Below are positions 738 to 14,149 of a DNA stretch of 64,000 nt, piece by piece. Position 1 is the stretch's first letter; every line of letters starts with the position of its first letter. This stretch comes from an uncultured Nannocystaceae bacterium (GTDB taxonomy: Bacteria > Myxococcota_A > Polyangia > Nannocystales > Nannocystaceae). The DNA is taken from NCBI GenBank assembly GCA_964621785.1, contig CAZUPD010000021.1, positions 2,009 to 66,008 on the forward strand, given 5' to 3'. A program made the position numbers and the translations under genes. The notes below the pieces were generated by a model, which saw only the letters and a list, made by a program, of their open reading frames with translations, did not search any database and was not told the origin of the DNA.

Positions 738-1051
738 TCGAGTTTGTGCGCGGCCGCGAGACACTCCGGATCGGCACACAGGGTCTCGATCCAGCCCTTG
801 ACGGCAACTTCACCCGCCGACGTACCGCCACAGATCTGGCATGTGTACGCACTGATTTCCTCGACTTCGGCGAGTCGCTCGGCGACGGCTGGTGGCGCGT
901 CCCAGATGTCGAACCGCAACACCCCCCATTTTTGGTAGACCTGTACGACGACACAGCCGACTGGAAGATGGTCGAACACGCGGTCGACCAGCGGCAGCCA
1001 ACCTGGCCCGCACACTCGTCGAAGATGGTTTCGCGCCTCGTCCCGTGTCAT
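731..1051 (-). CDS. hypothetical small Cys-containing protein
   Basis: ORF 731..1189. I prefer the internal ATG at 1051 (MTRDEARNHLRRVCGPGWLPLVDRVF...CQICGG...LCADPECLAAAHKLDY), because the upstream 46 codons look non-protein-like and it leaves room for a divergent promoter with the gene at 1211. Confidence 0.5.
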   Translation of the reverse strand: MTRDEARNHLRRVCGPGWLPLVDRVFDHLPVGCVVVQVYQKWGVLRFDIWDAPPAVAERLAEVEEISAYTCQICGGTSAGEVAVKGWIETLCADPECLAAAHKLDY

Positions 1052-1210
1052 CTCTTGGGGGTCCGTATTTTGCTCGAAGCACCGCCTCGTTGGCCGCGTT
1101 GTCGAGGATGGCTTCGCCAATCCTACCGTCGCGCCATGACGGTTGTCATTCACAGAAGTCATTTGCGAACCTGGCAAGTGCGTGGCCACTCGTAATTTTC
1201 ATGGACCGCG

Positions 1211-2515
1211 GTGCAGGCCAGCCTGGAGCAGAGTCTGCTAAGGTTTGCTGTGGCTGCGAAATCGGGAGTGTTTGGTTGGCTCGACCGCCTGCAAAAGTCG
1301 CACAAACGGCATCAGCAGCGTCACCGTCCGACGGGTTTTGGCTATGCCCTGACCGACGACATCGACATGGTGCGTCCCGACCATTGGGACGCCGTGGTCG
1401 CCCACGGTTCGATGTGTCTCGGGCGGCCCTACCTCGGCACGCTGGCCCGCTTTGGTCCCCGTGGGGTCAGCTATCGCCAAGCGTTGATCTACCGCGGCCG
1501 CCAGCCGATCGCGGCGGTCTCAACCCAGTTGATCGCGATCGCGGCCTCGCAGGTGGTCGACGGGATCGATGTTGATACGGGGCTCCCACTTGCAGATGCA
1601 ACTTCGAAGCTATCCAAGGCCGCGCTCGAGAAGTTGCGTCCTCGGGTCATGGTCTGTGGCGACCTGCTCACCTGGGGCCGGTGTGGGGTGGCCTTTGTCC
1701 CCGATGTCGACCCCGGAGACGTATGGCCCGCGGTCGCCGAAGCGCTGTATCGAATGCGCCGGGCCGACCGTCTGCAGGGACAGATCGACTATGTGATGGT
1801 CAAAGACTTCCCCGAGGGAGAGCCCGGGTTGGACGCCCTGCATGTCTACAGTTACCGACCGCTTGTGACCGAGCCGGACATGGTGCTGACACTCCAGCAG
1901 GAGTGGGGAGGGTACGACGATTACCTCAAGAGCCTGAAGACCAAATATCGCAAGGCGGCCCGCAAGTTGGCGCGCCAGGTCGAAAAGGCCGGGTGTGTGA
2001 TCGAGCCGCTCTCCGACCTCGTGCCCCACGCGGAGCGCCTCTATCAATTGTATCAGCAAGTAGAGTCGCGGGCGAGTGTCCGCCTCGCATCGATGACCCC
2101 GGACTTTCTGCCCCAGCTCGCACGCGCACTCGGGCCCGAGCTGTTTCGGTGTTCGGTGATCCGTCGCGGCGATGAGATCCTCGGTTTTGCCACCACCCTG
2201 CGCGACCGCACCCGCGCGGTCGGGTTCTATCTTGGATTTGATTATACAACAAATGAGACAGTCCCATTGTATCTGCGACTGTTGCAAGCGGTGATCGCCG
2301 ACGGGATTTCGCTCGGCGGTGACGTCCTCTCGCTCGGGCGAACAGCCCTCGAGCCAAAGGCCCGTCTCGGGGCGCAGCCGCGTCCACAGCAGATCTGGGT
2401 CCGTCACCGGATCCCGCTGATCAACGTGGTTGTCCGCGAGTTGTTGCAGGTGATCCCGCATGCCGAGGCTCCGGAGCGCTCACCGTTCAAAACAAAACCG
2501 TCGGGTGGCGACTAA
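1211..2515 (+). CDS. GNAT/FemAB-fold acetyltransferase-like protein (Acetyltransf_6-like, tentative)
   Basis: 434-aa ORF (GTG start). Length and C-terminal half (FLPQLARALGPELFRCSVIRRGDEILGFATTLRDRTRAVGFYLGFDY...PLYLRLL) resemble BioF2-like/FemAB-type GNAT proteins from memory. No search was run. Confidence 0.5.
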   Translation: MQASLEQSLLRFAVAAKSGVFGWLDRLQKSHKRHQQRHRPTGFGYALTDDIDMVRPDHWDAVVAHGSMCLGRPYLGTLARFGPRGVSYRQALIYRGRQPIAAVSTQLIAIAASQVVDGIDVDTGLPLADATSKLSKAALEKLRPRVMVCGDLLTWGRCGVAFVPDVDPGDVWPAVAEALYRMRRADRLQGQIDYVMVKDFPEGEPGLDALHVYSYRPLVTEPDMVLTLQQEWGGYDDYLKSLKTKYRKAARKLARQVEKAGCVIEPLSDLVPHAERLYQLYQQVESRASVRLASMTPDFLPQLARALGPELFRCSVIRRGDEILGFATTLRDRTRAVGFYLGFDYTTNETVPLYLRLLQAVIADGISLGGDVLSLGRTALEPKARLGAQPRPQQIWVRHRIPLINVVVRELLQVIPHAEAPERSPFKTKPSGGD

Positions 2516-2645
2516 CGGCTTCGTCGAAGTTCGAGCCGTAGCTCGCAAATGTCGCGCGAAGGAGCGAAGCGATTGTGCCGGACTGCCTCGGGCTCCCGGT
2601 TGCAAATGCACCCAAGCAGGGAACGACCCTGTTAGGCTCTCGCCG

Positions 2646-3533
2646 ATGATCATCGTCACCGGAACCAAACGCTCGGGCACTTCGATGTGGATGCAGATAC
2701 TTCGTGCGGCCGGCTTTCCGGTGATCGGTGAGGCATTTCCGGGGCAGTGGGAACGCTCGTTACGAGGCGCCAACCAGGAGGGTTTTTACGAGTCGCGGTT
2801 GCGCGGTGGCATCTACTACGCGACCAATCCCGACCCGGAAACCGGTGTGTTTGTCCGCCCTAGCCAGACCCCGCACCACGCGGTCAAGGTGTTTATCCCG
2901 GGTCTGGTTCGCACCGATTTCGGCTACATCGATCGGGTGATCGCGACCATGCGTCACTGGCGGGAGTACACGCGATCACTGCGGCGGTTACACGCGATCG
3001 AGGATGCCTTTCACGCCGAGCGTGAGGCCGCCGGCGAGGTCGACCCGCGCGACCGCGAAACCCGGGCACGGTTTTGTCGCAACCGATTGCATCCAGCCCT
3101 CGAGTGGTGGTTTGAAAATTACGACCTGATCCGTGACATCGCCGTGCGTGGGTACGCCGTCCACATGCTGACCTACGACCGCCTACTTTCCGATCCTCAC
3201 AGGGAGATCCACCGCGTTGTGCAGTGGCTCGGTGCCGGAGATGCCGAGGCCGCCACGCGGGTGGTCGATCGATCCCTGCGCACCCAAGACCGAAGCGAGT
3301 CGTCCCTACAGGAACAAGATGTGGATGCACGGATTACGCCTGAGCTCGCAGCGACCTTCGATACACTTTACGCCGCCGTCCACAGTGGCGCGGGGTTGAC
3401 CGCTGCTCTCATCGAACAGCTCAATCAAACCCATGCCCAGCTCGAGCCGATCCTGCTCGACCATATCCAGACGGAGCGCCGACGGTTGCGGGAAAGCGAG
3501 CTTGACGCCCTGTTTGGCGAGGCACCGTTTTGA
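2646..3533 (+). CDS. sulfotransferase family protein
   Basis: Internal ATG at 2646 gives MIIVTGTKRSGTSMW (PAPS 5'-phosphosulfate-binding P-loop-like motif). The rest is typical of small bacterial sulfotransferases (HAVKVFIPGL, MLTYDRLLSDP). Upstream ORF residues look non-coding. Confidence 0.7.
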   Translation: MIIVTGTKRSGTSMWMQILRAAGFPVIGEAFPGQWERSLRGANQEGFYESRLRGGIYYATNPDPETGVFVRPSQTPHHAVKVFIPGLVRTDFGYIDRVIATMRHWREYTRSLRRLHAIEDAFHAEREAAGEVDPRDRETRARFCRNRLHPALEWWFENYDLIRDIAVRGYAVHMLTYDRLLSDPHREIHRVVQWLGAGDAEAATRVVDRSLRTQDRSESSLQEQDVDARITPELAATFDTLYAAVHSGAGLTAALIEQLNQTHAQLEPILLDHIQTERRRLRESELDALFGEAPF

Positions 3534-3539
3534 CACGAC

Positions 3540-3562
3540 GTTGTGTTTTGTGCACACACAAC
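3540..3562 (+). terminator. hairpin just after the sulfotransferase stop
   Basis: GTTGTGT (3540-3546) pairs with ACACAAC (3556-3562), 7 nt after the TGA at 3531-3533. There is no clear U-tract, so this is weak. Confidence 0.25.
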
Positions 3563-3816
3563 TGTTGCGTACTCACCCACGAGTGCCCGTCGTGATCAAC
3601 GACTCCGGGTCATCACCTCACTTGCGCAAGTTCGCAACTCTGCGTGGGGAGATATGGTCCTCCGACGTGGGTCGGCTCGATAGGCGTGCCCGGGGCCCGT
3701 CTGGCTGCATTTTAGAACTGTGCTTGGGCAAGAAAGTGTTTGATGTCACGGCCGCGTGCTTGTCCTGCGTTCGCACAATTTGGGGTCACCTGCTACCGTC
3801 CGCCTCTGAGGTGAAC

Positions 3817-5052
3817 ATGGCGTCTTCGCAACTGCAAGCTCTCCCCCTTCGATTGTTCCTGACAGCTGTGCCATTTGTTCTCGTGGCCTGTGGCGATAGC
3901 GAGGAAGGATCTTCAGACAGTGTATCTGCATCGAGCTCAGAGTCCGCCACGACGGCCGAGACAACTGCAGAGACGACTGACGAGAGCACGGGTGGTGAGG
4001 TCACAACCGACGAGCCGACGGGTGGCAATTCTGACTCCGAGACCGCCGGGCCGACGACGGACCCGAGCACGACGGACCCGAGCACGACGGATCCGAGTAC
4101 CACGGACCCGAGCACGACAGATCCGAGTACGACGGACCCGAGTACGACGGATCCAACGACCACGACTGATTCGGACACCGAGGGCGAGACTGACACGGGG
4201 TCGCAATTCGGTGTCGTCCGGTTTATCGCCCTCGGCGATGGTGGCGAAGGCAACGACACCCAATACCAGGTCGCCAACGCTGTCGAAATGATCTGTGCCG
4301 ACCGCGGCTGCGACTTCGCACTCTACTTGGGTGACAACTTCTACGACGAGGGGGTCGATTCACCACAAGACGGCCAGTTCGAGACCAAGTTTGAGATGCC
4401 CTACGCCGACATCGGTTTCCCGTTTTACATCGTGTTTGGTAACCACGACTACGGCTTGATCGCCAACCAGTGGTACAAAGCCGAGTACCAGATCGAGTAC
4501 TCCGACTATAGCGACAAATGGACGTGCCCCGCAAAATGGTATGACTTTCAAGCCGAAAACGTTCACTTCTTTGGGCTCGATACCTCGCGGATTTTCTGGG
4601 ATTACGAGTGGGACGAACAAAAGGACTGGTTGCTCGATGGTATCAACAGCTCCGATGCGACCTGGAAGATTGCCTTTGGTCACCACCCGTACATCTCCAA
4701 CGGCGAGCATGGGAATGCCGGCAACTACGAGGGCCTGAGCTTCATTCCGATCGTCAACGGCGCCACGGTCGAAGATTTTATGGATGAAGCTGTGTGTAAC
4801 AACATCGATATTTACTTCTGCGGCCACGACCACAACCGCCAGTGGCACGAAAAACGCTGTGGGACCGAATTTATTGTTTCGGGCACTGCCGCCAAAACAA
4901 CCGACTTTGCCCACCGTGACGACAACCCAGTACTGTGGGAAGACGACCAACGAGCCGGGTTTATGTGGGTCGAAATCGACGGCAACCAAATGACAGGTGC
5001 TTTTTACGACGCCGAGGGGAACCTCGAGTTTGAGCACACGATCACCAAGTAG
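3817..5052 (+). CDS. metallophosphoesterase (calcineurin-like/purple-acid-phosphatase-like) lipoprotein
   Basis: ATG 3817 gives MASSQLQALPLRLFLTAVPFVLVAC (lipobox). Motifs present: GDGGEG, GDNFYDEG, GNHDY, GHHPY, GHDHNRQ. A (TDPST)x7 linker follows the signal peptide. Confidence 0.85.
   Translation: MASSQLQALPLRLFLTAVPFVLVACGDSEEGSSDSVSASSSESATTAETTAETTDESTGGEVTTDEPTGGNSDSETAGPTTDPSTTDPSTTDPSTTDPSTTDPSTTDPSTTDPTTTTDSDTEGETDTGSQFGVVRFIALGDGGEGNDTQYQVANAVEMICADRGCDFALYLGDNFYDEGVDSPQDGQFETKFEMPYADIGFPFYIVFGNHDYGLIANQWYKAEYQIEYSDYSDKWTCPAKWYDFQAENVHFFGLDTSRIFWDYEWDEQKDWLLDGINSSDATWKIAFGHHPYISNGEHGNAGNYEGLSFIPIVNGATVEDFMDEAVCNNIDIYFCGHDHNRQWHEKRCGTEFIVSGTAAKTTDFAHRDDNPVLWEDDQRAGFMWVEIDGNQMTGAFYDAEGNLEFEHTITK
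4057..4161 (+). repeat. 15-nt tandem repeat x7 encoding the TDPST linker
   Basis: acggacccgagcacg units are repeated head to tail with a few third-position changes; counted directly in the sequence. Confidence 0.9.
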
Positions 5053-5061
5053 CTGCGGTCG

Positions 5062-5802
5062 CTATCCGGTTTGACGGGGGCTCCGCAGGCGGATGATGAG
5101 CGAGCCAAAAGCACCTTGGGCGTCGCGCTCCGGCGCCCAGGAGACCACGGATGCGGCACCGGGTCCTTCGCAATAGGCGATCACAGCGGGTTTGAGAACT
5201 GGATCGCCGCGACTCGACAAGCCCTTGCCCGTGATCACGCGGACGAACCGAATACCGCGGGCACGGTGGTGGGCGATGAACGCAAGCACCTGTTCGAGGG
5301 CCCGGATTCGCGGGAGTTTTCGGATGTTGAGCTCGGGGAGAGGACGGGTCTTGGCGGCCTGGCGCAGCAGGGTGCGCTGGGGCGGGGTCAACGGCTGTGC
5401 ATGTAAATGCAACAGAGCCGCAGGAAGTCGATCACGCCACGATTGGCCGGTAAACGAGTGGAGCTCGAGGCGTTCGAGGGCCGACAGCAGGGGATCGGGA
5501 GGGGGCTCGGGTACCGGTGTCGCCTCCGGAGGTTGCAGTTGTGGTGTGTGCGTCCGCCGGGCGAGCGGGAGCTCGACAACGGTCATCGCATCGAGGTCGA
5601 GGTGTTCGCCTGTCAGTAGAGATGTATACGCAATTTTCATGAGCTCCGATTCCGTGACCTCATAAAATGGTTCGGGCTCAGGTTGGGGTTCAGGGATCGG
5701 GAGGCGCTTGAGTTGTTCGAGACGGTGCACCAGCGGCTCACAGGAGCGCGCTCGCGTGCCACGGGCGATGCGCTTTTTCTTCCGTTTGCGTCGGCGAGGC
5801 AC
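5062..5802 (-). CDS. Smr (small MutS-related) domain protein
   Basis: C-terminus LEQVLAFIAHHRARGIRFVRVITGKGLSSRGDPVLKPAVIAYC is Smr-like. The ORF runs to 5919, but that would overlap the divergent gene, so I prefer the in-frame GTG at 5802 (VPRRRKRKKKR...). Start is uncertain. Confidence 0.7.
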   Translation of the reverse strand: MPRRRKRKKKRIARGTRARSCEPLVHRLEQLKRLPIPEPQPEPEPFYEVTESELMKIAYTSLLTGEHLDLDAMTVVELPLARRTHTPQLQPPEATPVPEPPPDPLLSALERLELHSFTGQSWRDRLPAALLHLHAQPLTPPQRTLLRQAAKTRPLPELNIRKLPRIRALEQVLAFIAHHRARGIRFVRVITGKGLSSRGDPVLKPAVIAYCEGPGAASVVSWAPERDAQGAFGSLIIRLRSPRQTG

Positions 5803-5910
5803 GGTCGCGGTGTAGCACTCAGGTGGCAAAACTAAAAACGCTGTCCGGGCCGAGCCTATCGAGACTGCAGTCCATCGCCGAATACGGCCAAGACCTGTTA
5901 GGATTTGACG

Positions 5911-6723
5911 ATGGGACATCTACTGCATTGGGCTGGAATTTTTGCAGTGGCGTTTGTCGCCGCGCTTGTGAGTTGCGCGGACGAGGGCAAGAAATTCGAG
6001 GATGCGTGCCTCGACTATTGCGATGCCCAAGAAGCGGCTGGGTGTGCACAGCAGTTCATCACGGTCGAACAGTGCCGGGCATCGTGCGGTTTGTACGAAT
6101 CCCAACTCGGGGGCCTGTGCCTCACCGAGTACACCGCGACGTTCGAATGTTCTGCGGCTGCGGGGTTTGAGTGCATCATGGGCTATCCGGCTCCGAAGGG
6201 TGGAGCCTGTCTGTCCGAGACGAACGCGTTGTTGACGTGCCAAGAGCAGGCGAGCTGTATCAGTTACTGCTCATCCGCGGTCGATGCAGGCTGTGGTGGC
6301 AGCGATACGGCGAGCTGTGAAACGCAGTGTCAAGCCGAGCGTGAGGACTTGGCCGACCCGTACTACTGCGATTTTGAGTACGACGATCTTCTCACCTGCT
6401 GGGGGGAGACCGGAGTGACATGTTCAAATGGTCAAGCTGTTGCGGGCGGATGCGGTGAAGAAGTACTCTCCGTCGGCGATTGCATCGGATTTGATAACCT
6501 TTGCGCCGGGTACTGTTGGGCCGCCGAACGGTTTGAGTGCGGTGCGGAGACCTGCGCCAGCGATTGCTCGGTCAAGGCCGGAGATCCGACCTGTGGCCGC
6601 GATTACGAGGATCTGCTGGAGTGTGTCCTGCGCGAGTACGAGGCAACCTGCGTCGACGGGTTGTTGTTCAGCGAATTTTGCGACTACGAGCGAATGCAGT
6701 ACGAGCAGTGCCTCTCGGGTTAG
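5911..6723 (+). CDS. Cys-rich secreted lipoprotein with three internal modules
   Basis: ATG 5911 gives MGHLLHWAGIFAVAFVAALVSC (lipobox). About 30 Cys are arranged in three ~85-aa modules with the recurring pattern C..YC...C...C...C...Y(D/E)DLL.C. No family recognised. Confidence 0.7.
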   Translation: MGHLLHWAGIFAVAFVAALVSCADEGKKFEDACLDYCDAQEAAGCAQQFITVEQCRASCGLYESQLGGLCLTEYTATFECSAAAGFECIMGYPAPKGGACLSETNALLTCQEQASCISYCSSAVDAGCGGSDTASCETQCQAEREDLADPYYCDFEYDDLLTCWGETGVTCSNGQAVAGGCGEEVLSVGDCIGFDNLCAGYCWAAERFECGAETCASDCSVKAGDPTCGRDYEDLLECVLREYEATCVDGLLFSEFCDYERMQYEQCLSG

Positions 6724-6845
6724 GTACCTACGGCCACCATTTTTTGTGTGGAATGGGATCGAATGGGCTCGTGCGGGCTCGTTCGCGGACGTGAACAAGA
6801 ATATGTATTTGCAAATGTAGAGTTCTCGCAATAGCAGGTTGTCGC

Positions 6846-8423
6846 TCAGTGCTTTACTTCTGCGTTTTTTCGCTGCAACTCGATGGCTGCCTCGTCGCCG
6901 ACGGCCTCTGCCTCCTGCAGCAACCAGCGGAAGATCGGCATGGCGAGCGCGTATTGTTTGCGTTCGTTCCACAGCCAGACACCGTGGGCACAGCAGGCTG
7001 CGTGGACCTGTGGGAACAGCACTCTTCGGGCATCCATACCCCCGATTTTTGTTGCATGTTCACATGATTCGCGCAGCTGGGTCCACTCGCGCCACTCGTC
7101 GATCGGGAGCTTTTCGCGACCGCCGCGGACCCGGTTGTGCAGCGTGTCGCACAGTTGCTCAACGGTGACGAGCAGGCGGCTACGCAGGACGCGGATCGCC
7201 TCGGCTGCGAAGCTCTCGGGCTCGTCGGTACCGACGGTATCGACCAACGACAGACCCGCGGCCTCGGCATAGTCGGCGATGTCTTCACAGACTTGCTTGC
7301 GATAGCGGGCGAGGACTTCGGCGGGGTCGAGTGGGGCTTCGAGGTTGAGGACGCGTCGCCGCAGGTGCTCGAGCAAGCTGTCGCCGGCGAACACTCCTTC
7401 CCAGGCCGTCACGAGCTCAGCGAGTTTGTGCGGTCGCAGTCGCAGCCATACGGGACCCTCACGCCGGAGTTGGGCATGGCGGGCGAGTGCTCGCTGCAGC
7501 GGCGTACCTTCGGGTTGTGGATCGTCCTGGGCACCCGTAGATTTTGGTTGCCGTTTGGCGTAGAGAATCCGTGGGCAGGCGAGGGCGCGGTCTCGCCACA
7601 CGAGCGTGTCACGGCGTTTACCCGCGCGAAACCACAGGGCGATGAGGTTGATATCCGGCGGTGAAGGTTGCTGATACAAGCGAGCCGCAACCACCGTCAA
7701 GAATCGAGCCTGGGGCGAGGGTTCGCGGTTGCAGTGACCGAGGCGGACCACTTCGTCCCAGTTGCCCAAAGCTGCGGCGTCGGCCATCAACCAGTCCCAG
7801 GCGATCGTCAGCGCGAGTTGTGGGGTGTCGTCGTTGCGCAGACTCGAAGCGCTGAGCATCAGCTGGCGCGCCTCATCACGGTCGCCGCGATTGGCCGCCA
7901 ACAACCCCTGGGCGACCACACCCGCGCCGGCGAGCGAGGGCAGGGCGTGGAGTTTGTTCTCGACCCAGGTGGCATCGTCGGGGTCGTAGATCGGTTTTGC
8001 ATAGGAGGCCCATGCGGCCGCCAACACGGCGCCTCCCTGGCGATCTTCAGACCAGGTATTGGCGGAGATCCGCGCGAGGTGATAGGCGAGCCACGTCTGT
8101 CCGCCGGCGATCGCTCGACGAGCGAGGGTCCACCCCAGGTCGGCTACTTTTTGCCAGTAAATCGCAAGGGTGATGAGCCCGACCAACAGCGCCCAGGTCG
8201 GTGGGCGTTGGAGCTGGGCCGCGAGGTCGGTGTGGGCGGCTAAAATTGCAAGTGCAAGGAACGGGCCGCGCGCAGGATTTTGCTGCCAGCGCCCATCCGT
8301 CGACGAGTGATTTTTTGGTGGAACATCGGCCAAGTGGTGATGCTTGAACGGACGTGGTCGCATCCGGCGATGACGCTGATTCGCGGACCAAGCGAGTGCT
8401 GCCAGGGCAGCGAGTAGGAGCAT
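6846..8423 (-). CDS. membrane-anchored alpha-helical-repeat protein, third gene of the Hsp70 operon
   Basis: ATG at 8423 lies 8 nt after the upstream stop (8432). The N-terminus has three hydrophobic segments (MLLLAALAALAW, GPFLALAILAAH, TWALLVGLITLAIYW), followed by about 450 aa of helical, TPR-like-looking sequence. No family recognised. Confidence 0.65.
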   Translation of the reverse strand: MLLLAALAALAWSANQRHRRMRPRPFKHHHLADVPPKNHSSTDGRWQQNPARGPFLALAILAAHTDLAAQLQRPPTWALLVGLITLAIYWQKVADLGWTLARRAIAGGQTWLAYHLARISANTWSEDRQGGAVLAAAWASYAKPIYDPDDATWVENKLHALPSLAGAGVVAQGLLAANRGDRDEARQLMLSASSLRNDDTPQLALTIAWDWLMADAAALGNWDEVVRLGHCNREPSPQARFLTVVAARLYQQPSPPDINLIALWFRAGKRRDTLVWRDRALACPRILYAKRQPKSTGAQDDPQPEGTPLQRALARHAQLRREGPVWLRLRPHKLAELVTAWEGVFAGDSLLEHLRRRVLNLEAPLDPAEVLARYRKQVCEDIADYAEAAGLSLVDTVGTDEPESFAAEAIRVLRSRLLVTVEQLCDTLHNRVRGGREKLPIDEWREWTQLRESCEHATKIGGMDARRVLFPQVHAACCAHGVWLWNERKQYALAMPIFRWLLQEAEAVGDEAAIELQRKNAEVKH

Positions 8424-8431
8424 CGAGGGGC

Positions 8432-8812
8432 TCACCCGACCCTCCAGTCGAACAACCGCCAAACCTCGGGCCACGGGGGATGGGCGGGATCTTCGTCGGT
8501 CTCCGGTGGCGCCTCGGTGCCTTCGTCGGTTTGGGTTAAGTTTGATGCTTGTACAAGGTCTGCCCACAACTCGTGGACAATCCGCCGCTTTGGATCGCGC
8601 AACTGTGCCATCGCGGTGCGGACGAGCTCAGGCGTTCGCGGCCGCGGACCGAGCGGTGTTGTGTAGGTCGAAGCCTTGACGACGCCGAGCTCGAGTAGCC
8701 CGAGGAGCTTTTGCCCTTCGCGTTCGATCTGCTGGCGGGAACAGCAGGGCGTGAGGCCGAGGACAAAAAACGGGTTGTCCGCAAGCGCGTCGTCGTGTCG
8801 ACCGGAGGCCAC
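8432..8812 (-). CDS. J-like domain protein lacking the HPD motif
   Basis: DNPFFVLGLTPCCSRQQIEREGQKLLGLLELGVVKAS...PELVRTAMAQLRDPKRRIVHELWA matches the J-domain helix I-III layout, but LELG stands where HPD should be. It has an acidic tail. Confidence 0.6.
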   Translation of the reverse strand: MASGRHDDALADNPFFVLGLTPCCSRQQIEREGQKLLGLLELGVVKASTYTTPLGPRPRTPELVRTAMAQLRDPKRRIVHELWADLVQASNLTQTDEGTEAPPETDEDPAHPPWPEVWRLFDWRVG

Positions 8813-8843
8813 AGGCGATTATAGGTGGTCGCGCGAGCAGCTG

Positions 8844-11312
8844 CTAGCGCACTCCGGAGTCGTGGCCGAGCCGGCGGTCTTCGGGGTCGTCGGGAAGCAG
8901 TTGCCAGAGCTTTTGGGTGATCCGGCGCAGGGTGGGCACATCGTCCTTGTTGAGGGCGATCTTTCCCTCTTTGACGAGGGCTTGGGCGGCGACCAAGTCG
9001 GTCGCTTGGTCGATCTTGGAGGCCGCGCGTTCAAACCGGTGGTGCCAGGCGTGGGGATGCCGGAGGGAGGCGGTCGAGGCCAGTCGGGTCAGCAGCCGCA
9101 GTTGGCGTTGCATCTCGAGGGCGTCGTGGGTTTTCCTTGCATGTTCAATTGCTTTAGCGGTTTCGGTGAGCAGCCGGGCCTCGTGGGGGAGGCCGAAGTC
9201 CGCGATCACAGCGGATGCCCAGATCATGGTCTCACGCGCTTCTTCGTCGAGTTTCGGCCACCGCTTCTCGAGTTCGATCTGTTCGATCTCGGCGTCGAGA
9301 TCGAGGAAGGCGCGGCGGGCTTTTTGCGCGGCATCGGTGTCGCCCCCGGCAGCTGCCGAAACATCGGTCTCGAGGCTGGCGAGCCTGGCTTCGATGCTGT
9401 TGAGACGCCCGATCGCCGAGATGACCTTGTTTTGAAAGGCTTCGGAACGCAGCTCGATGACACGCTTTTGCGTGGCCTCGAGGCTGGCGACCAAAACTTC
9501 GGGGCTGGCCTCGGGGACAAGTAGGTGGGCGACCTGTTCAAACACTTGGTCGAGCGAAGGGACGAGGGCGCGGGCTGACATCCGGCCACCGCGGTCGAGC
9601 TCGATGGTGACTTCGACTTCGGAACCGGCGGGAAGATTTTGTTTGATGGTCTCGCCGCGCAGCTCGAGCGAGCCGACTAGGCGACACAGGTGGGCATCTT
9701 CGAACTCTCCCTGGACGATCGGGATCTTGAGCAAACATTCGTCGCTGCCGGCCGGGATGGTTTCGACAGTGCGCAGGTTGAACGTCCGACGCACGGGCAG
9801 GGGTGCGCCGCGCTCGAAGTAGACCCGCACGTGGTTGTTGGCGAGGGCGACTCCGACGGTGCGCGACAGGGGTGGATCGCTGATTGTCAGTCCTTGGACG
9901 ATGGTGAATGTCGGCGGCTCGATGGCCACGGGGGACTCCGGTCCGCGCCGACCTTCGATGCGAAAGATGTTGGGGCGGCGCGGGAGTAGGGTGACTGAAA
10001 GGACAAATGCACCCTCCTCGTCGATCTCGGTCCACGGGCTTTCCCACAGACCGTCGCTGCGGATGACCCGAAGTTCCTTGGGCGCCTCGTCGGGTTCGCT
10101 GTCGACCAACTTGCCGACGACGTGGGGCGTGATGTCCGAAGACATCGCCGGGTGTTGCAGCCACACGCGTTGACCCCGGGCAATCGGTTCGGCCTTGATG
10201 GCGGGGCGTGCATCGAGGCCGGCGGTAGCGGCATAGATCGCGGCTCCGCGGGCGACCAAACTCATCGGATCGAGACCCTCGGTGGGGGTGACTTGGAGAA
10301 CCTGTGACACGCGGCGGCGGACGATCGGCATCACCGACGGACCACCGACTAGCACGACATGTTGGAGATCGCCGGGTTTGAGTCCGTGGGTTTCGGTCAA
10401 CCGTGTACATACATCGAGAGAACGATCGACCAGCGACATGCACAGGGCTTCGAGTGTGTCGCGGGACAGCGGGAGCTCGAGGTCGATGGGATCGCCGTCG
10501 GGAACCGCGAGTTCGATGACAGAGATCACGGTCGAGGTCGCCCGACTGAGTTCGATCTTTGCCTCTTCGGCGAGTTGCTTGAGTCGCGTGATCGCGGGTC
10601 CGTGCGTGGGTTCGCTGCGCGAGATGACAACGTCTTCCAAGCGTTTGATCTCGGCGAGGATCCAGTCGACGATCGCCCAGTCGAAATCGCGGCCGCCCAG
10701 AAAGTTGTCGCCGTCGTGGCCGATCACCCGCAGCAAACCATCGCGGGTTTCGAGCAGCGAAGCGTCAAATGTGCCGCCGCCTAGGTCGTACACCAGCCAG
10801 CTGCCGGTCGCCTCCTCGGCCGACCAACCGGCGGCGAGGGCCGAGGCGATCGGTTCTTGCAGCAGCTCGACCTGTTCAAACCCAGCGAGCCTGGCCGCTT
10901 CGGAGGTGGCAGCGTTTTGCGGCAACTCAAACAGTGCCGGAACCGAGATCACGGCGCGCTCGGGGACAAACCCAAATTGGTCTTCGATATCCTTGCGTAG
11001 CGACTTGAGGACCTCGGCCGACAGTTCTTCGGGCGTCTTGGTGAGGCTGGAGGCCTTGAATGAAATTGCCTGCGAAGTCCCCATCAGGCGTTTGAACTCC
11101 CCGCGGGTATTGTTGGAGTCGCGTTCGAGGTAGCGGCGGGCCCGGGCACCCACCGTGACATTGCCGCGACTATCGATCCGAACCACCGAAGGTGTCAGCG
11201 TGGCACCTTGAGCATTGCGGATGGGGGTGACCTGTTCGCCGTCAAACACTGCGGCAGCCGAGTTGGTCGTCCCGAGATCGATGCCGACATAGCGGGGAGT
11301 TGCGAGGCTCAT
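8844..11312 (-). CDS. Hsp70/DnaK-family ATPase with long C-terminal helical extension (822 aa)
   Basis: Motifs present: VGIDLGTTNSAAAV, VYDLGGGTFDASLL, VVLVGGPSVMPIV. A beta-rich region follows, then about 250 aa of coiled/helical tail. It is much longer than canonical DnaK or HscA/HscC. Confidence 0.9.
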   Translation of the reverse strand: MSLATPRYVGIDLGTTNSAAAVFDGEQVTPIRNAQGATLTPSVVRIDSRGNVTVGARARRYLERDSNNTRGEFKRLMGTSQAISFKASSLTKTPEELSAEVLKSLRKDIEDQFGFVPERAVISVPALFELPQNAATSEAARLAGFEQVELLQEPIASALAAGWSAEEATGSWLVYDLGGGTFDASLLETRDGLLRVIGHDGDNFLGGRDFDWAIVDWILAEIKRLEDVVISRSEPTHGPAITRLKQLAEEAKIELSRATSTVISVIELAVPDGDPIDLELPLSRDTLEALCMSLVDRSLDVCTRLTETHGLKPGDLQHVVLVGGPSVMPIVRRRVSQVLQVTPTEGLDPMSLVARGAAIYAATAGLDARPAIKAEPIARGQRVWLQHPAMSSDITPHVVGKLVDSEPDEAPKELRVIRSDGLWESPWTEIDEEGAFVLSVTLLPRRPNIFRIEGRRGPESPVAIEPPTFTIVQGLTISDPPLSRTVGVALANNHVRVYFERGAPLPVRRTFNLRTVETIPAGSDECLLKIPIVQGEFEDAHLCRLVGSLELRGETIKQNLPAGSEVEVTIELDRGGRMSARALVPSLDQVFEQVAHLLVPEASPEVLVASLEATQKRVIELRSEAFQNKVISAIGRLNSIEARLASLETDVSAAAGGDTDAAQKARRAFLDLDAEIEQIELEKRWPKLDEEARETMIWASAVIADFGLPHEARLLTETAKAIEHARKTHDALEMQRQLRLLTRLASTASLRHPHAWHHRFERAASKIDQATDLVAAQALVKEGKIALNKDDVPTLRRITQKLWQLLPDDPEDRRLGHDSGVR

Positions 11313-11485
11313 ATGGCCTAGCAGGGTATCGGAATTTTCAGCGTTTCGGACCTCTGGTCACTCCCTCGTGAGATCCGGCATTTCCTCTGTGTTGTCCGTT
11401 GATTGCGCCGATATCGCCGATTGCTTGGTCGCTGGCGACACGCGAGAAACACCACGCAGGTTTGACAAACGTGTGTGTGCGCGAA

Positions 11486-12082
11486 ATGTGTCGGAAAGTT
11501 GCGAGGCTTGGGACGGTCGGCGACGGTGGGACCGTGACTCGCGGATCCTTGGCTTGTTGTGCTCTCGTCCTCGCGTGTGCGGGGTGCAGCGAAGCAGTCG
11601 ACCGCAGGCCACAGCCGCGGCAAGCCACGCGATCGACCCTGTTTGGGGCGCCTGAGTTGGTGCCGACCCGGGAGGGTGAACGGATCCGTCGCGAGTTGGC
11701 AACCGCTGCAGAGATCCGCCAAACCCTCGCGGGGTTTTTGCCGTGGCGTATCCACCACGTCCAAGTGCGACTGTCCCACGAAGGAGTGCGCGGGCGGGTT
11801 TCGGTGGTCCTACAAGTAAATCCAGATGCGGCCGAGGTCGAGCCGTATGTCGACCAGATTCAGCGAATCGTCGCCGGGATTGTGCCCGAAACAGGCTGGC
11901 GAGCCGAGCAGACGACGGTGGTCGTCGGAGCCAGCGAACGCGACATCCCCGGGCCACGCGAGCCGTTTCGCCCCCGCGACATCCTCCTTGTGTTGAGTAT
12001 TTTCGGCTTTGGGGCGAGCTTTGGCGTGGTGGTCGATCGCAGTCTCCTCAGGCGACAGCGCTCCGAAAACCATATCCACTGA
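11486..12082 (+). CDS. lipoprotein with C-terminal TM anchor and a ring-building-motif-like core (tentative)
   Basis: ATG 11486 is followed by lipobox LVLACAGC. The core RRELATAAEIRQTLAGFLPWRIHHVQVRLSHEGVRGRVSVVLQVNPDAAEVEPYVDQIQRIVAGIVPE has the alpha-beta-beta-alpha-beta pattern of YscJ/FliF/SpoIIIAG-type RBMs. C-terminal TM: ILLVLSIFGFGASFGVVV. Confidence 0.5.
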   Translation: MCRKVARLGTVGDGGTVTRGSLACCALVLACAGCSEAVDRRPQPRQATRSTLFGAPELVPTREGERIRRELATAAEIRQTLAGFLPWRIHHVQVRLSHEGVRGRVSVVLQVNPDAAEVEPYVDQIQRIVAGIVPETGWRAEQTTVVVGASERDIPGPREPFRPRDILLVLSIFGFGASFGVVVDRSLLRRQRSENHIH

Positions 12083-12591: not shown

Positions 12592-13386
12592 CTAGGGCGG
12601 ACCGCGGTCGCTCGTTTTGTGCTTCGGGGCGGATCGTTTACCCGGCTCTGGATCGGCCATTGGGGCATCGGGATCGAAGCGTGCGCGCAAATGCAGGGCA
12701 AGTTTGCGCAGAACTCTGGCGTGGCGTCGTGAAATCGTACTCACGCTCACCCCGTAGGCCTCTTTGAGAGAGTGCATCGACTGCTCGCGTGTGTAGAGGT
12801 CGTCGAGTAACCGGCGCTCGTCCGGCGTACACACCTCGTGGAGGACTTGGTGGAGGACCTCGCGTTGTTCCACTGCGAGCACCTGATCGTCGGGCGGTGT
12901 CGCGTCGGGATCGGGTGCACTCTCGATGATGTCCGGACCCGCGGTGATGTGATTGAGCACCACCGCAGCCGTGGTTTGGCGGATGAGTTCTGCTGCTGCA
13001 TATACACGTTCATCGAGGGAACGCGGATCGTCGCTCGCCGCGGGGAAGTGGTTGCCCATCAACTCGGCCGCCGACTGGCTCATCGCCATCGTCTGGGCCG
13101 CGCGTTTGATTCGCCTGCGGTTGCGCGTACGGGAGCGGACGGCGTCGATCATTGCCCCGCGCACGCGGTAGTAGGCGTATCCCCAAAACGGAACTCCTGT
13201 ATCGGGGTCGTAACGGGCGGCGGCACGGGTCAACGACTCGTAACCGATACTGACAAACTCGTCGTAGCTGAGCACGCCGAGGTACTGGGAAACGCTGTGG
13301 GCGACGCGGCGGATCTTCGGAAGATGGGCGACGACCAGTTGGTGACGTCCGCGCGTGAGTGGAGCATCTGCGCCGTCTTGGGACAT
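12592..13386 (-). CDS. RNA polymerase sigma factor, sigma-70 family group 3 (FliA/WhiG-like)
   Basis: Region 2 (YDEFVSIGYESLTRAAARYDPDTGVPFWGYAYYRVRGAMIDAVR) and region 4 HTH (SMHSLKEAYGVSVSTISRRHARVLRKL) are present. The ATG at 13386 is preceded by AGGAGG 8 nt upstream (rc of 13395-13400). Confidence 0.85.
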   Translation of the reverse strand: MSQDGADAPLTRGRHQLVVAHLPKIRRVAHSVSQYLGVLSYDEFVSIGYESLTRAAARYDPDTGVPFWGYAYYRVRGAMIDAVRSRTRNRRRIKRAAQTMAMSQSAAELMGNHFPAASDDPRSLDERVYAAAELIRQTTAAVVLNHITAGPDIIESAPDPDATPPDDQVLAVEQREVLHQVLHEVCTPDERRLLDDLYTREQSMHSLKEAYGVSVSTISRRHARVLRKLALHLRARFDPDAPMADPEPGKRSAPKHKTSDRGPP

Positions 13387-13396
13387 CGTGTCTGCC

Positions 13397-13455
13397 TCCT
13401 GATAGGAGTCGCATACGTTGCGACGGATAGACAAGCGGCGATGCTTATCATCGCC
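13397..13455 (-). promoter_or_regulatory. three consecutive short hairpins in the sigma-factor leader
   Basis: Inverted repeats: CTCCT/AGGAG (13396-13408, overlapping the RBS), GTCGCA/TGCGAC (13408-13424) and GGCGATG/CATCGCC (13437-13455). Confidence 0.3.
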
Positions 13456-13577: not shown

Positions 13578-13931
13578 TTAGTTAAGAACGCGGGTCTCAC
13601 AGGCCTGTAAGTAGCCGCGCAGAGAATTGAACTGTTGCTCGGTCAGGTCGTGAAACCGGATGGCGAGTTCCGACCGGCTGGCCCGCACGACAACGCCGTG
13701 AACGGGGAGGTTGGCCGATCGCTCCGGAAACGACAGGACCATCGTTACGCGTGTGCCGCGATCCTCCCAGGCCGGTCCGAGAAACCGGCACCCACCGAGG
13801 CTCAAGTCTTCGAGGATGCGGGACAAAACCACCTCCGAACCGATGACATCTGCACTCGCGCGGATCCGAAGTCGAGGGTGGTACCGAGCATCATCTGTAG
13901 AGGTGTTCACAAGTGCATCATACCGACTCAT
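13578..13931 (-). CDS. PilZ domain protein
   Basis: ATG 13931. RLRIR ... DLSLGG motifs sit in a ~117-aa protein (MSRYDALVNTSTDDARYHPRLRIRASADV...LEDLSLGGCRFLG). Confidence 0.7.
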   Translation of the reverse strand: MSRYDALVNTSTDDARYHPRLRIRASADVIGSEVVLSRILEDLSLGGCRFLGPAWEDRGTRVTMVLSFPERSANLPVHGVVVRASRSELAIRFHDLTEQQFNSLRGYLQACETRVLN

Positions 13932-14149
13932 CGCGCATGTGGGTGAATGCGCGATGGGAGAGTCGTCACATTTTCCTGGGCCGGTTTGCGAGATGGACGC
14001 CGTGACACCCGTGGGGAAATTGCTGTGCCAATTTGGCAAAGCATCCGAGCAAAGCGGCCGACACAATCGGAAAAGTCGGTGTGAATGCCTGGGTTCTGGC
14101 AACTTGGACGGTTGGCCGCGAGATTGCTATACGCATCGTCGGTCCCGCG

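Follow-up and report, generated by a model that had tools for sequence, protein, structure and literature searches.

Introduction

Reviews of 2021 and 2026 describe only DnaK, HscA and HscC as characterised types of bacterial Hsp70, with other derivatives unexplored (PMC8215388, PMC13580251). HscA is a specialised Hsp70 that is independent of GrpE and has a single dedicated J-partner, HscB, encoded adjacently, and HscC of Escherichia coli is a specialised, non-heat-shock Hsp70 with private J-partners (DjlB/DjlC), a membrane-anchored component and no GrpE (PMC8215388). Here we report a three-gene operon in a 64,000-nucleotide stretch of DNA, hereafter the window, from an uncultured Nannocystaceae bacterium (GenBank assembly GCA_964621785.1, contig CAZUPD010000021.1, positions 2,009 to 66,008). 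The operon encodes an atypical Hsp70, a small protein predicted to adopt a J-domain fold in which the His-Pro-Asp (HPD) motif is absent, and a third, probably membrane-anchored protein with a predicted all-alpha solenoid resembling tetratricopeptide repeats (TPR). The trio is conserved almost only in Myxococcota, and alignments suggest that both sides of the canonical interface between Hsp70 and J-domain have been rewritten in it. No published description of the operon was found in the literature.

Functionally, the nearest bacterial parallel to the operon is HscC together with DjlB/DjlC. HscC and the Hsp70 of the operon share a deletion in the nucleotide-binding domain (NBD) near DnaK ~77–100 and the loss of the D211 loop, although such deletions are also found in other Hsp70s (PMC8215388), and TPR-like (Sel1) genes occur in the E. 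coli hscC neighbourhood. However, HscC has 556 residues and a normal linker, whereas the Hsp70 described here has 822 residues, is only ~34% identical to HscC in the NBD and forms a separate branch in a neighbour-joining (NJ) tree with three references. The partners of HscC are tail-anchored proteins of ~480 residues with an HPE motif, whereas the J-fold protein of the operon is soluble, has 126 residues and carries Glu-Leu-Gly (E-L-G), and the anchor lies on the separate solenoid protein. In the hscC locus of E. coli K-12 (L085 in our collection, 676000–690000), DjlB and DjlC carry H-P-E in N-terminal J-domains, so that a change in the last residue of HPD has precedent among specialised Hsp70 systems of bacteria. 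Two Sel1-repeat proteins and two DUF1266 proteins are encoded in this locus as well. Kinship of the solenoid family with YbeR/YbeU (DUF1266), YbeT (Sel1) and DjlB/C was considered and rejected, as hhalign found none. The likeness to HscA/HscB is limited in turn, because HscB has HPD whereas the J-fold protein does not, and no isc genes are present in the trio flanks.

Among myxobacteria, Myxococcus xanthus has 15 Hsp70-family genes, whose role is mostly unknown (PMC4319316, PMC13580251). Its stkABC and sglK/grpS resemble the operon in that non-heat-shock Hsp70 paralogues stand in small operons with non-canonical partners. stkABC encodes the 540-residue StkA, a 141-residue SCP2-like protein and an 89-residue protein (PMC4319316), and is set apart from the trio by this published architecture only. 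SglK, unlike the Hsp70 of the trio, is a PRK00290-type DnaK beside a GrpE homologue (grpS), and the PilZ-DnaK proteins CsdK1/2 also have an architecture unlike that of the trio.

A conserved operon found almost only in Myxococcota

Species-representative genomes were scanned with an alignment of the J-like protein, and the best 80 of 173 relatives were taken as loci. Seventy-eight of the 80 carried the label Myxococcota, 'delta proteobacterium' or 'Proteobacteria bacterium', and the other two were metagenome-assembled genomes (MAGs) labelled Acidobacteriota. By tblastn and mapping of open reading frames (ORFs), 68 of 82 loci were found to carry the three genes on a single strand in the order Hsp70, J-like, third; the 14 others were for the most part truncated contigs. 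Stops and starts within the trio were typically adjacent or overlapping. Such loci span Sorangium, Chondromyces, Minicystis, Nannocystaceae, Kofleriaceae, Haliangiales and Archangiaceae. When all ORFs of the first 22 kb of the window were searched against the loci, flanking genes differed between lineages and only the trio was broadly common.

Full-length Hsp70 homologues of ~820 residues, 60–86% identical to the Hsp70 of the window, were found across Myxococcota (Nannocystis, Enhygromyxa, Plesiocystis, Minicystis, Chondromyces, Sorangium, Byssovorax and an Archangium MAG). In Archangium and Chondromyces the Hsp70 gene is followed by a gene for 120–147 residues (52% identity to the J-like protein) and then by one for 464–493 residues (32–38% identity to the third protein), in flanks wholly unlike those of the window. 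Relatives of the trio were not found in viral contigs, nor was any Myxococcus genome among the best 80 of 173 relatives. We conclude that the three genes constitute a conserved operon, closely packed and confined almost wholly to Myxococcota; they are kept together in relatives, as the dedicated module first proposed would require. No orthologue of the Hsp70 in M. xanthus was identified among the best 80; one candidate is MXAN_5323 (925 residues, annotated for the NBD only), whose neighbours are mentioned in no paper that we found.

Several loci depart from the common arrangement. A Polyangia MAG (8_bin.71) carries two complete paralogous trios (L003 and L024), with Hsp70s 83–87% and 48–56% identical to that of the window; the module has therefore been duplicated as a unit. 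Three Myxococcales/Polyangia MAGs (L030, L038, L076) form a divergent subgroup with adjacent J-like and third genes (45–47% and 27–29% identity) and no Hsp70 of the trio family within 7 kb upstream; in L038 the gene upstream of the pair is without a Pfam match and runs in the opposite direction. On contig JAUIKS010000033.1 of the Polyangia MAG Co_bin.371 (L012/L084), the operon is split by insertion or rearrangement, the J-like and third genes remaining adjacent, with a hybrid histidine kinase, a metallophosphoesterase and a leucine-rich-repeat/DUF924 protein among the products encoded in between. In L080, a Kofleriaceae MAG, ~1.15 kb (5750–6900) separate the Hsp70 stop from the J-like start, compared with 0–40 nt in other loci. 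In L078, a MAG labelled Acidobacteriota (~840–9740), a third-protein homologue (5490–6962) lies upstream of the J-like gene (7001–7318), with no Hsp70 within 7 kb, and a large gene of an AEP-TOTE primase/helicase conflict system lies at 841–3378. A 799-residue 'ASKHA' protein (Pfam Hydant_A_N) of L078, encoded after the J-like gene, was considered as an alternative ATPase partner and rejected, because its translation proved to be Arg-rich and its ORF a spurious over-extension around a frameshifted gene for a hydantoinase.

Catalytic residues and J-docking surface of the Hsp70

The domain limits of the Hsp70 are given in Table 1. Pfam HSP70 (PF00012) matched residues 9–362 only (E 4.7e-83). We aligned 70 family members to E. 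coli DnaK, and residues of the Hsp70 are counted in this alignment and given in DnaK numbering. All ten ATPase residues (D8, G10, N13, K70, R71, P143, E171, D194, T199, D201) were conserved in 70 of 70 members, in agreement with a sequence-only reading of the window, which had found all ATPase motifs kept.

In the DnaK-DnaJ complex (5NRO), J-domain residues R22, K26, R27, K48 and K51 pair with DnaK E206, D211, E217 and D477, D35 of HPD bonds to R167 and Q378, H33 contacts L391, and P34 contacts P419 (PMC8215388). In the family, positions with which DnaK touches the J-domain or holds SBD-beta against the NBD were changed nearly throughout: R167 by Glu and N170 by Gln (each 70/70), E217 by Arg (69/70), Q378 by Tyr (68/70) and D208 by Arg (66/70), with residues 209–211 deleted throughout (70/70). 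P419 was kept (70/70), and D477 was exchanged for Glu (69/70). Three further positions were changed, namely D148 (Leu in 68/70), D326 (Ala, Ser, Thr or Gln in 66/70) and D481 (Gly in 70/70). As read from this alignment, the canonical J-docking surface of the Hsp70 is charge-inverted, not merely degraded. The systematic replacement of canonical J-binding residues supports the earlier suggestion that the locus encodes a dedicated Hsp70 module instead of a part of general proteostasis.

The NBD alone aligned to the NCBIfam DnaK models, with 293 bits against a cut-off of 648 and 290 bits against 823 (NF001413 / TIGR02350), and the HscA equivalog was not reached (254 bits against a cut-off of 708.55). 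In the NJ tree of the NBD, which held E. coli DnaK, HscA and HscC as its only references, the family stood ~35% identical to each of the three. With scores so far below the DnaK and HscA cut-offs, its own branch beside these three references and a make-up different from that of stkABC, the Hsp70 falls outside the characterised clades.

A substrate-binding domain (SBD) was recognisable in divergent form. hhalign of the family C-terminal profile against the E. coli DnaK, HscA and HscC SBDs aligned residues 480–588 with DnaK 395–494 (probability 91.7%, E 7.6e-7), whereas HMMER alone gave no significant match (i-E 0.92). The canonical DVLLLD linker, which joins the NBD directly to SBD-beta, was not found in that arrangement, since an insert of ~110 residues separates the two domains. 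This insert ends in TIVQGLTIS, with TIVQG invariant, just before SBD-beta, and the motif is linker-like. Profile searches gave no PDB or Pfam match for the insert, which appears beta-rich from its sequence pattern. The C-terminal ~230 residues likewise had no significant PDB or Pfam match and no detectable likeness to the DnaK lid in that place; we assume them to be helical from their sequence and from weak helical-repeat matches. A match of the insert/C-terminal region to a designed tandem-repeat protein (E 8e-6) was dismissed, because it was a repeated match to one helix. The helical C-terminal extension of ~250 residues first read from the sequence is therefore only partly retained: a C-terminal region of about that length (~230 residues) exists, its helicity being assumed, and it is not a single extension, since the insert at residues 367–478 has to be added.

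A small protein with a predicted J-domain fold and no HPD

The AlphaFold2 model of the middle protein, computed from a 58-sequence alignment, reached a predicted local distance difference test (pLDDT) of 84 overall and 96–98 at residues 11–90, with helices at 14–18, 26–42, 61–72 and 74–96. Foldseek against 350,542 PDB chains gave almost exclusively J-domains among the top ~35 matches, including DnaJ, Sis1, Ydj1, CbpA and the DnaK-bound J-domain in 5NRO. Probabilities of these matches were 0.85–0.96, target-normalised TM-scores up to 0.69 and root-mean-square deviations ~3 Å over 72–75 columns, with E-values of only 0.1–3. A four-helix J-domain fold is thus predicted with high confidence. The suggestion that the middle protein is J-domain-like and lacks HPD agrees with the model, and the near-exclusive J-domain matches speak against another known fold.

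Reading the alignment, we found the helix I signature N-P-F-F-V-L-G-L where DnaJ has D-Y-Y-E-I-L-G-V, and the helix III/IV signature A-M-A-x-L-R-D-P-x-R-R-x-x-H-E where DnaJ has A-Y-E-V-L-T-D-S-Q-K-R-A-A-Y-D. At the position of DnaJ H33-P34-D35 stands E41-L42-G43, and HPD was absent in 58 of 58 aligned homologues. The conserved loop that starts at this motif forms a beta-hairpin in the model (DSSP strands 49–52 and 55–58). In the register of helices II and III, DnaJ R22 corresponds to an invariant E30, K26 to an invariant Q34, R27 to K35 and K51 to an invariant R65. The plan of the 126-residue protein comprises the J-fold (residues ~10–96), a Pro-rich linker and a conserved C-terminal G-W motif.

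Sequence searches did not return this fold. No sequence match to a J-domain was found with PF00226 in the 58 members, with Pfam and NCBIfam, or with phmmer and hmmsearch against the PDB, and one of the 97 homologues is named 'J domain-containing protein' by UniRef. hhalign against a J-domain alignment gave a probability below 2%; this alignment was poor, being made of three E. coli HPD-centred segments of which that of DjlC was not a J-domain. The putative J-domain homology accordingly comes from the fold prediction and the motif reading, and from these only.

A third protein with a predicted TPR-like solenoid

A profile search of 1.84 billion representatives returned 726 relatives of the third protein at 50% identity (E up to 0.001), nearly all of 450–545 residues and matched end to end. 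Searches against Pfam and NCBIfam (E up to 0.1) and PADLOC gave no match, and TPR and Sel1 repeat models were not matched. The AlphaFold2 model (119 sequences) was all-alpha with a pLDDT of 89.4 and a predicted TM-score (pTM) of 0.83. Its structural neighbours in the PDB were generic TPR-type proteins only (LGN, TTC7, P58IPK and the TPR of OGT; Foldseek E 0.01–0.2, TM-score <0.25).

Three hydrophobic stretches of ~15 residues (1–15, 55–69, 76–90) were found in the N-terminal part of the window copy, none of which reached a Kyte-Doolittle value of 1.6 over 19 residues. By the same test, at least one transmembrane (TM) segment was predicted in 116 of 119 family members, mostly two or three, with the last segment ending at residue 81 in the median. 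We suppose from these hydrophobic N-terminal helices that the third protein is probably membrane-anchored. The loop at residues 22–52, after helix 1, is disordered in the model and rich in Arg and Lys, which fits a cytoplasmic solenoid; we assume the Hsp70 and the J-fold protein to be cytoplasmic, on the same side. The helical body that had been read from the sequence is borne out by the model, while the three TM segments assigned with it are weaker in the window copy than had been thought.

Locus layout and neighbouring genes

The ORFs agree with the sequence-only reading in giving three minus-strand genes (Table 1) with gaps of 31 nt between the Hsp70 and J-like genes (8813–8843) and of 8 nt between the J-like and third genes (8424–8431), the latter only with an ATG start of the third gene. 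The Hsp70 and J-like proteins match the public gene calls P0001 and P0121 at 100% identity and coverage, while the public call of the third protein (P0218) has 529 residues and begins at a GTG at 8435. This GTG is preceded by GGAGG-N5 and overlaps the TGA stop of the J-like gene (GTGA), and it is at least as likely a start as the ATG. This overlap makes translational coupling of the J-like and third genes probable, in place of a separation by 8 nt.

Table 1. Coordinates of the operon and of its protein features in the window
Feature	Position	Strand	Size or residues	Basis and remarks
Atypical Hsp70 gene	8844..11312	-	822 aa, stop included	ORF list
Nucleotide-binding domain	10215..11312	-	1-366	~35% identical to E. 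coli DnaK NBD; catalytic residues intact
Family-specific insert between NBD and SBD-beta	9879..10214	-	367-478, ~110 aa	DnaK alignment; conserved in 23 diverse members
Divergent substrate-binding beta-domain	9543..9878	-	~479-590	hhalign; weak phmmer/blastp matches in the same register
C-terminal region	8847..9542	-	591-822, ~230 aa	Conserved in 23 members; assumed helical
C-terminal tail RRLGHDSGVR	8847-8876	-		S232, G233, R235 (C-terminal-region alignment numbering) invariant in 23 members
HPD-less J-fold protein gene (predicted fold)	8432..8812	-	126 aa, GTG start	ORF list
E41-L42-G43 and conserved 20-residue loop	8633..8692	-	41-60	A47, Y50, T52, P53, G55, R59, T60 invariant or nearly so
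Third protein gene	6846..8435	-	525 aa (ATG 8423) or 529 aa (GTG 8435)	ORF, public call, junction sequence
N-terminal hydrophobic helices and basic loop	8142..8423	-	Helices 1-21, 53-70, 76-94; loop 22-52	AlphaFold2, low to moderate confidence; hydropathy, charge
All-alpha TPR-like solenoid (predicted)	6861..8138	-	~96-521	AlphaFold2 pLDDT mostly >95

Upstream of the trio lies a divergent lipoprotein-like gene (11399–12082, plus strand) and downstream a convergent gene (5905–6723, plus strand), so that the trio seems to be transcribed as a unit by itself. The former encodes 227 residues that include a lipobox-like LACAGC as well as a hydrophobic C-terminal segment, the latter a Cys-rich, probably secreted protein of 272 residues; neither has a Pfam match, and both are conserved in the closest relatives only. 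A minus-strand ORF at 11318–11779, which ends 5 nt before the Hsp70 start, was rejected as a fourth operon gene, being non-protein-like and found only in the closest relative; the plus-strand lipoprotein-like ORF is the more credible gene.

A scan for promoters and terminators gave nothing above the shuffled expectation. No CIRCE element was present in the 64-kb window even with three mismatches allowed, and E. coli queries for GrpE and for the J-domain of DnaJ retrieved by tblastn neither a GrpE nor a canonical J-domain from the window or from any locus flank; the absence of GrpE and CIRCE nearby, noted when the DNA was first read, thus extends to the whole window.

Farther away, a predicted secreted calcineurin-like metallophosphoesterase with a long Thr/Asp/Pro/Ser-rich repeat, (TTDPS)n, before the catalytic domain is encoded at 3433–5052 (plus strand), and its gene also adjoins the trio in L003, L011 and L012. 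Upstream of the trio and on the same strand are a sigma-70-family factor with regions 2 and 4 (12592–13434) and a stand-alone PilZ protein (13578–14102), an arrangement that recurs only in Nannocystaceae-type loci (L003, L005, L011, L029, L066, L072, L073, L084). By analogy with the PilZ-DnaK fusions CsdK1/2 of M. xanthus, a link between cyclic di-GMP and Hsp70 paralogues is conceivable.

Discussion

With moderate confidence, we favour the reading that the three gene products make up a single specialised Hsp70 machine, self-contained, with a charge-inverted J-type partner of its own and a scaffold that is probably membrane-associated. In such a machine the J-fold protein would serve as a private co-chaperone or regulator, docking at roughly the canonical site through inverted electrostatics and perhaps stimulating the ATPase. 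The interface is regarded as inverted because Arg22 and Lys26 of DnaJ face Asp211 and Glu217 of DnaK, whereas here Glu30 and Gln34 would face Arg217 and Arg208, with 209–211 deleted; from the alignment registers we infer a reciprocal charge flip between helix II and the Hsp70 surface. The contact of helix III with SBD-beta looks retained with its polarity, Arg65 (DnaJ Lys51) being placed with Glu477 (DnaK Asp477). The D35-R167 contact would be replaced by Glu167 of the Hsp70 and the 20-residue loop of the partner, for which the invariant Arg59 is one candidate. Contacts rewritten in this manner would insulate the pair from the DnaK/DnaJ network of the cell, making it an orthogonal pair.

The third protein would hold the machine to the inner membrane, on its cytoplasmic side, and may act as scaffold or client selector. 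Its solenoid possibly binds the conserved C-terminal tails of the other two proteins (GHDSGVR of the Hsp70, GW of the J-fold protein), as TPR proteins bind EEVD. The neighbourhood lacks a gene for a nucleotide exchange factor, and the Hsp70 may therefore do without such a factor in its cycle, a mode proposed for HscA and HscC as well.

Two eukaryotic arrangements may be compared, both as analogies only. In the mitochondrial presequence-translocase motor (mtHsp70, Tim44, Pam18, Pam16), the Hsp70 is held at the membrane by a dedicated tether and is accompanied by the HPD-less, J-like Pam16, which recalls the trio, and HPD-less J-like regulators are established in mitochondria. However, the motor also has an HPD J-protein (Pam18) and an exchange factor (Mge1), neither of which has a counterpart in the operon. 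In EEVD-TPR docking (Hop, CHIP, Tom70), TPR co-chaperones dock the EEVD tail of Hsp70, and Tom70 is itself membrane-anchored; the trio likewise has a strictly conserved Hsp70 tail beside a TPR-like solenoid gene. Yet the tail GHDSGVR is unrelated to EEVD, and the solenoid is not recognisable as a TPR by sequence.

Several observations weigh against the self-contained machine. The argument for charge inversion rests on alignment registers, and covariation lends it no support, since these positions do not vary among family members. J-domain homology finds no backing in sequence statistics (neither Pfam nor the PDB gave a match, and the hhalign probability was <2%), and the small protein could be non-stimulatory. 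Classical Hsp70 allostery may not operate, because D148, D326 and D481 are lost and the canonical linker is interrupted. The hydrophobic segments of the window copy of the third protein are short, and two and three segments are about equally frequent in the family, so that no single topology emerges. In a few genomes the J-like and third genes occur without an adjacent Hsp70 (L030, L038, L076, L078), and in L012/L084 the Hsp70 lies ~19 kb from them.

This last pattern bears on another reading, namely that the operon is a dedicated chaperone-client unit in which the third protein is the client, or the assembly platform of the client, and is folded, inserted or regulated by the pair, as HscA/HscB serve IscU or as DnaK controls sigma-32. 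The J-like and third genes are indeed the tightest pair, with overlapping stop and start, and remain neighbours in loci whose Hsp70 is far away or missing; moreover, a large, helical, probably membrane-associated protein belongs to a class that often needs assistance. A one-to-one chaperone for a single solenoid has, on the other hand, no obvious need for conserved C-terminal tails or for a large Hsp70 insert, and the solenoid is modelled as a very well-ordered, stable fold (pLDDT >95). We consider this reading unlikely. Distinctly unlikely in our view is that the small protein is a non-stimulating regulator or tether like Pam16/Tim16, with stimulation coming from an HPD J-protein elsewhere or from the client. 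The complete absence of HPD among the aligned homologues would fit this, given that, in all systems examined, stimulation was lost once the His or the Asp of HPD had been exchanged (PMC8215388). An ordinary HPD J-protein is nevertheless unlikely to act on this Hsp70, because the residues that accept HPD and helix II are replaced (R167E, E217R, Q378Y, 209–211 deleted), and no second J-protein is encoded in the operon or its flanks.

Two other possibilities have little support. It seems very improbable that the enlarged Hsp70, in the manner of Hsp110, serves the housekeeping DnaK as a holdase or nucleotide-exchange factor instead of cycling as a chaperone itself. Its 822 residues, insertions, extended C-terminus and lost allosteric and J-contact residues recall Hsp110/Grp170 (for background, see PMC13580251), but the residues for hydrolysis are all strictly conserved, the insert lies before SBD-beta and not inside it, and a private J-fold protein and a membrane-anchored partner are foreign to Hsp110 systems. 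We give equally little credence to an anti-phage or conflict system with an Hsp70-type ATPase, a notion prompted by Hsp70 components in some predicted conflict systems (PMC7159879) and by the AEP-TOTE gene adjoining the variant locus L078. None of the three proteins matched PADLOC (E up to 0.1), viral copies and an effector-like domain are lacking, and the flanks hold ordinary housekeeping and metabolic genes that differ between lineages. The module is also usually present in one or two copies per genome and is syntenic within a family.

Returning to the self-contained machine, a bolder form of it would make the J-fold protein a true HPD-independent ATPase activator, working through an inverted helix II and the conserved loop and forming with the Hsp70 an orthogonal pair within a pulling or remodelling motor, anchored by the TPR-like protein, that acts on myxobacterial envelope, secretion or motility proteins. 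We regard this form as rather doubtful. If it holds, the trio would correspond in bacteria to the import motor of mitochondria or to docking on Tom70.

The module is a variation on the theme of the specialised Hsp70 and not a new kind of system. One of the unexplored Hsp70 derivatives is hereby given a defined three-part genetic context and concrete contacts, and two sizeable families without a Pfam or NCBIfam model are defined, the J-fold protein and the solenoid protein, the latter with 726 representatives at 50% identity. As far as the alignments can be read, the operon presents a natural and widely conserved case in which both sides of the Hsp70-J interface are rewritten together, with E-L-G and a new loop for HPD and Glu for Arg22 on the J-fold side, R167E, E217R and D208R on the Hsp70 side, and the ATPase site intact. 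A functional pair would show how an Hsp70/J couple becomes orthogonal to the housekeeping network, which would be useful for engineering insulated chaperone pairs and would bear on how cross-talk is avoided in cells with 10–15 Hsp70 paralogues.

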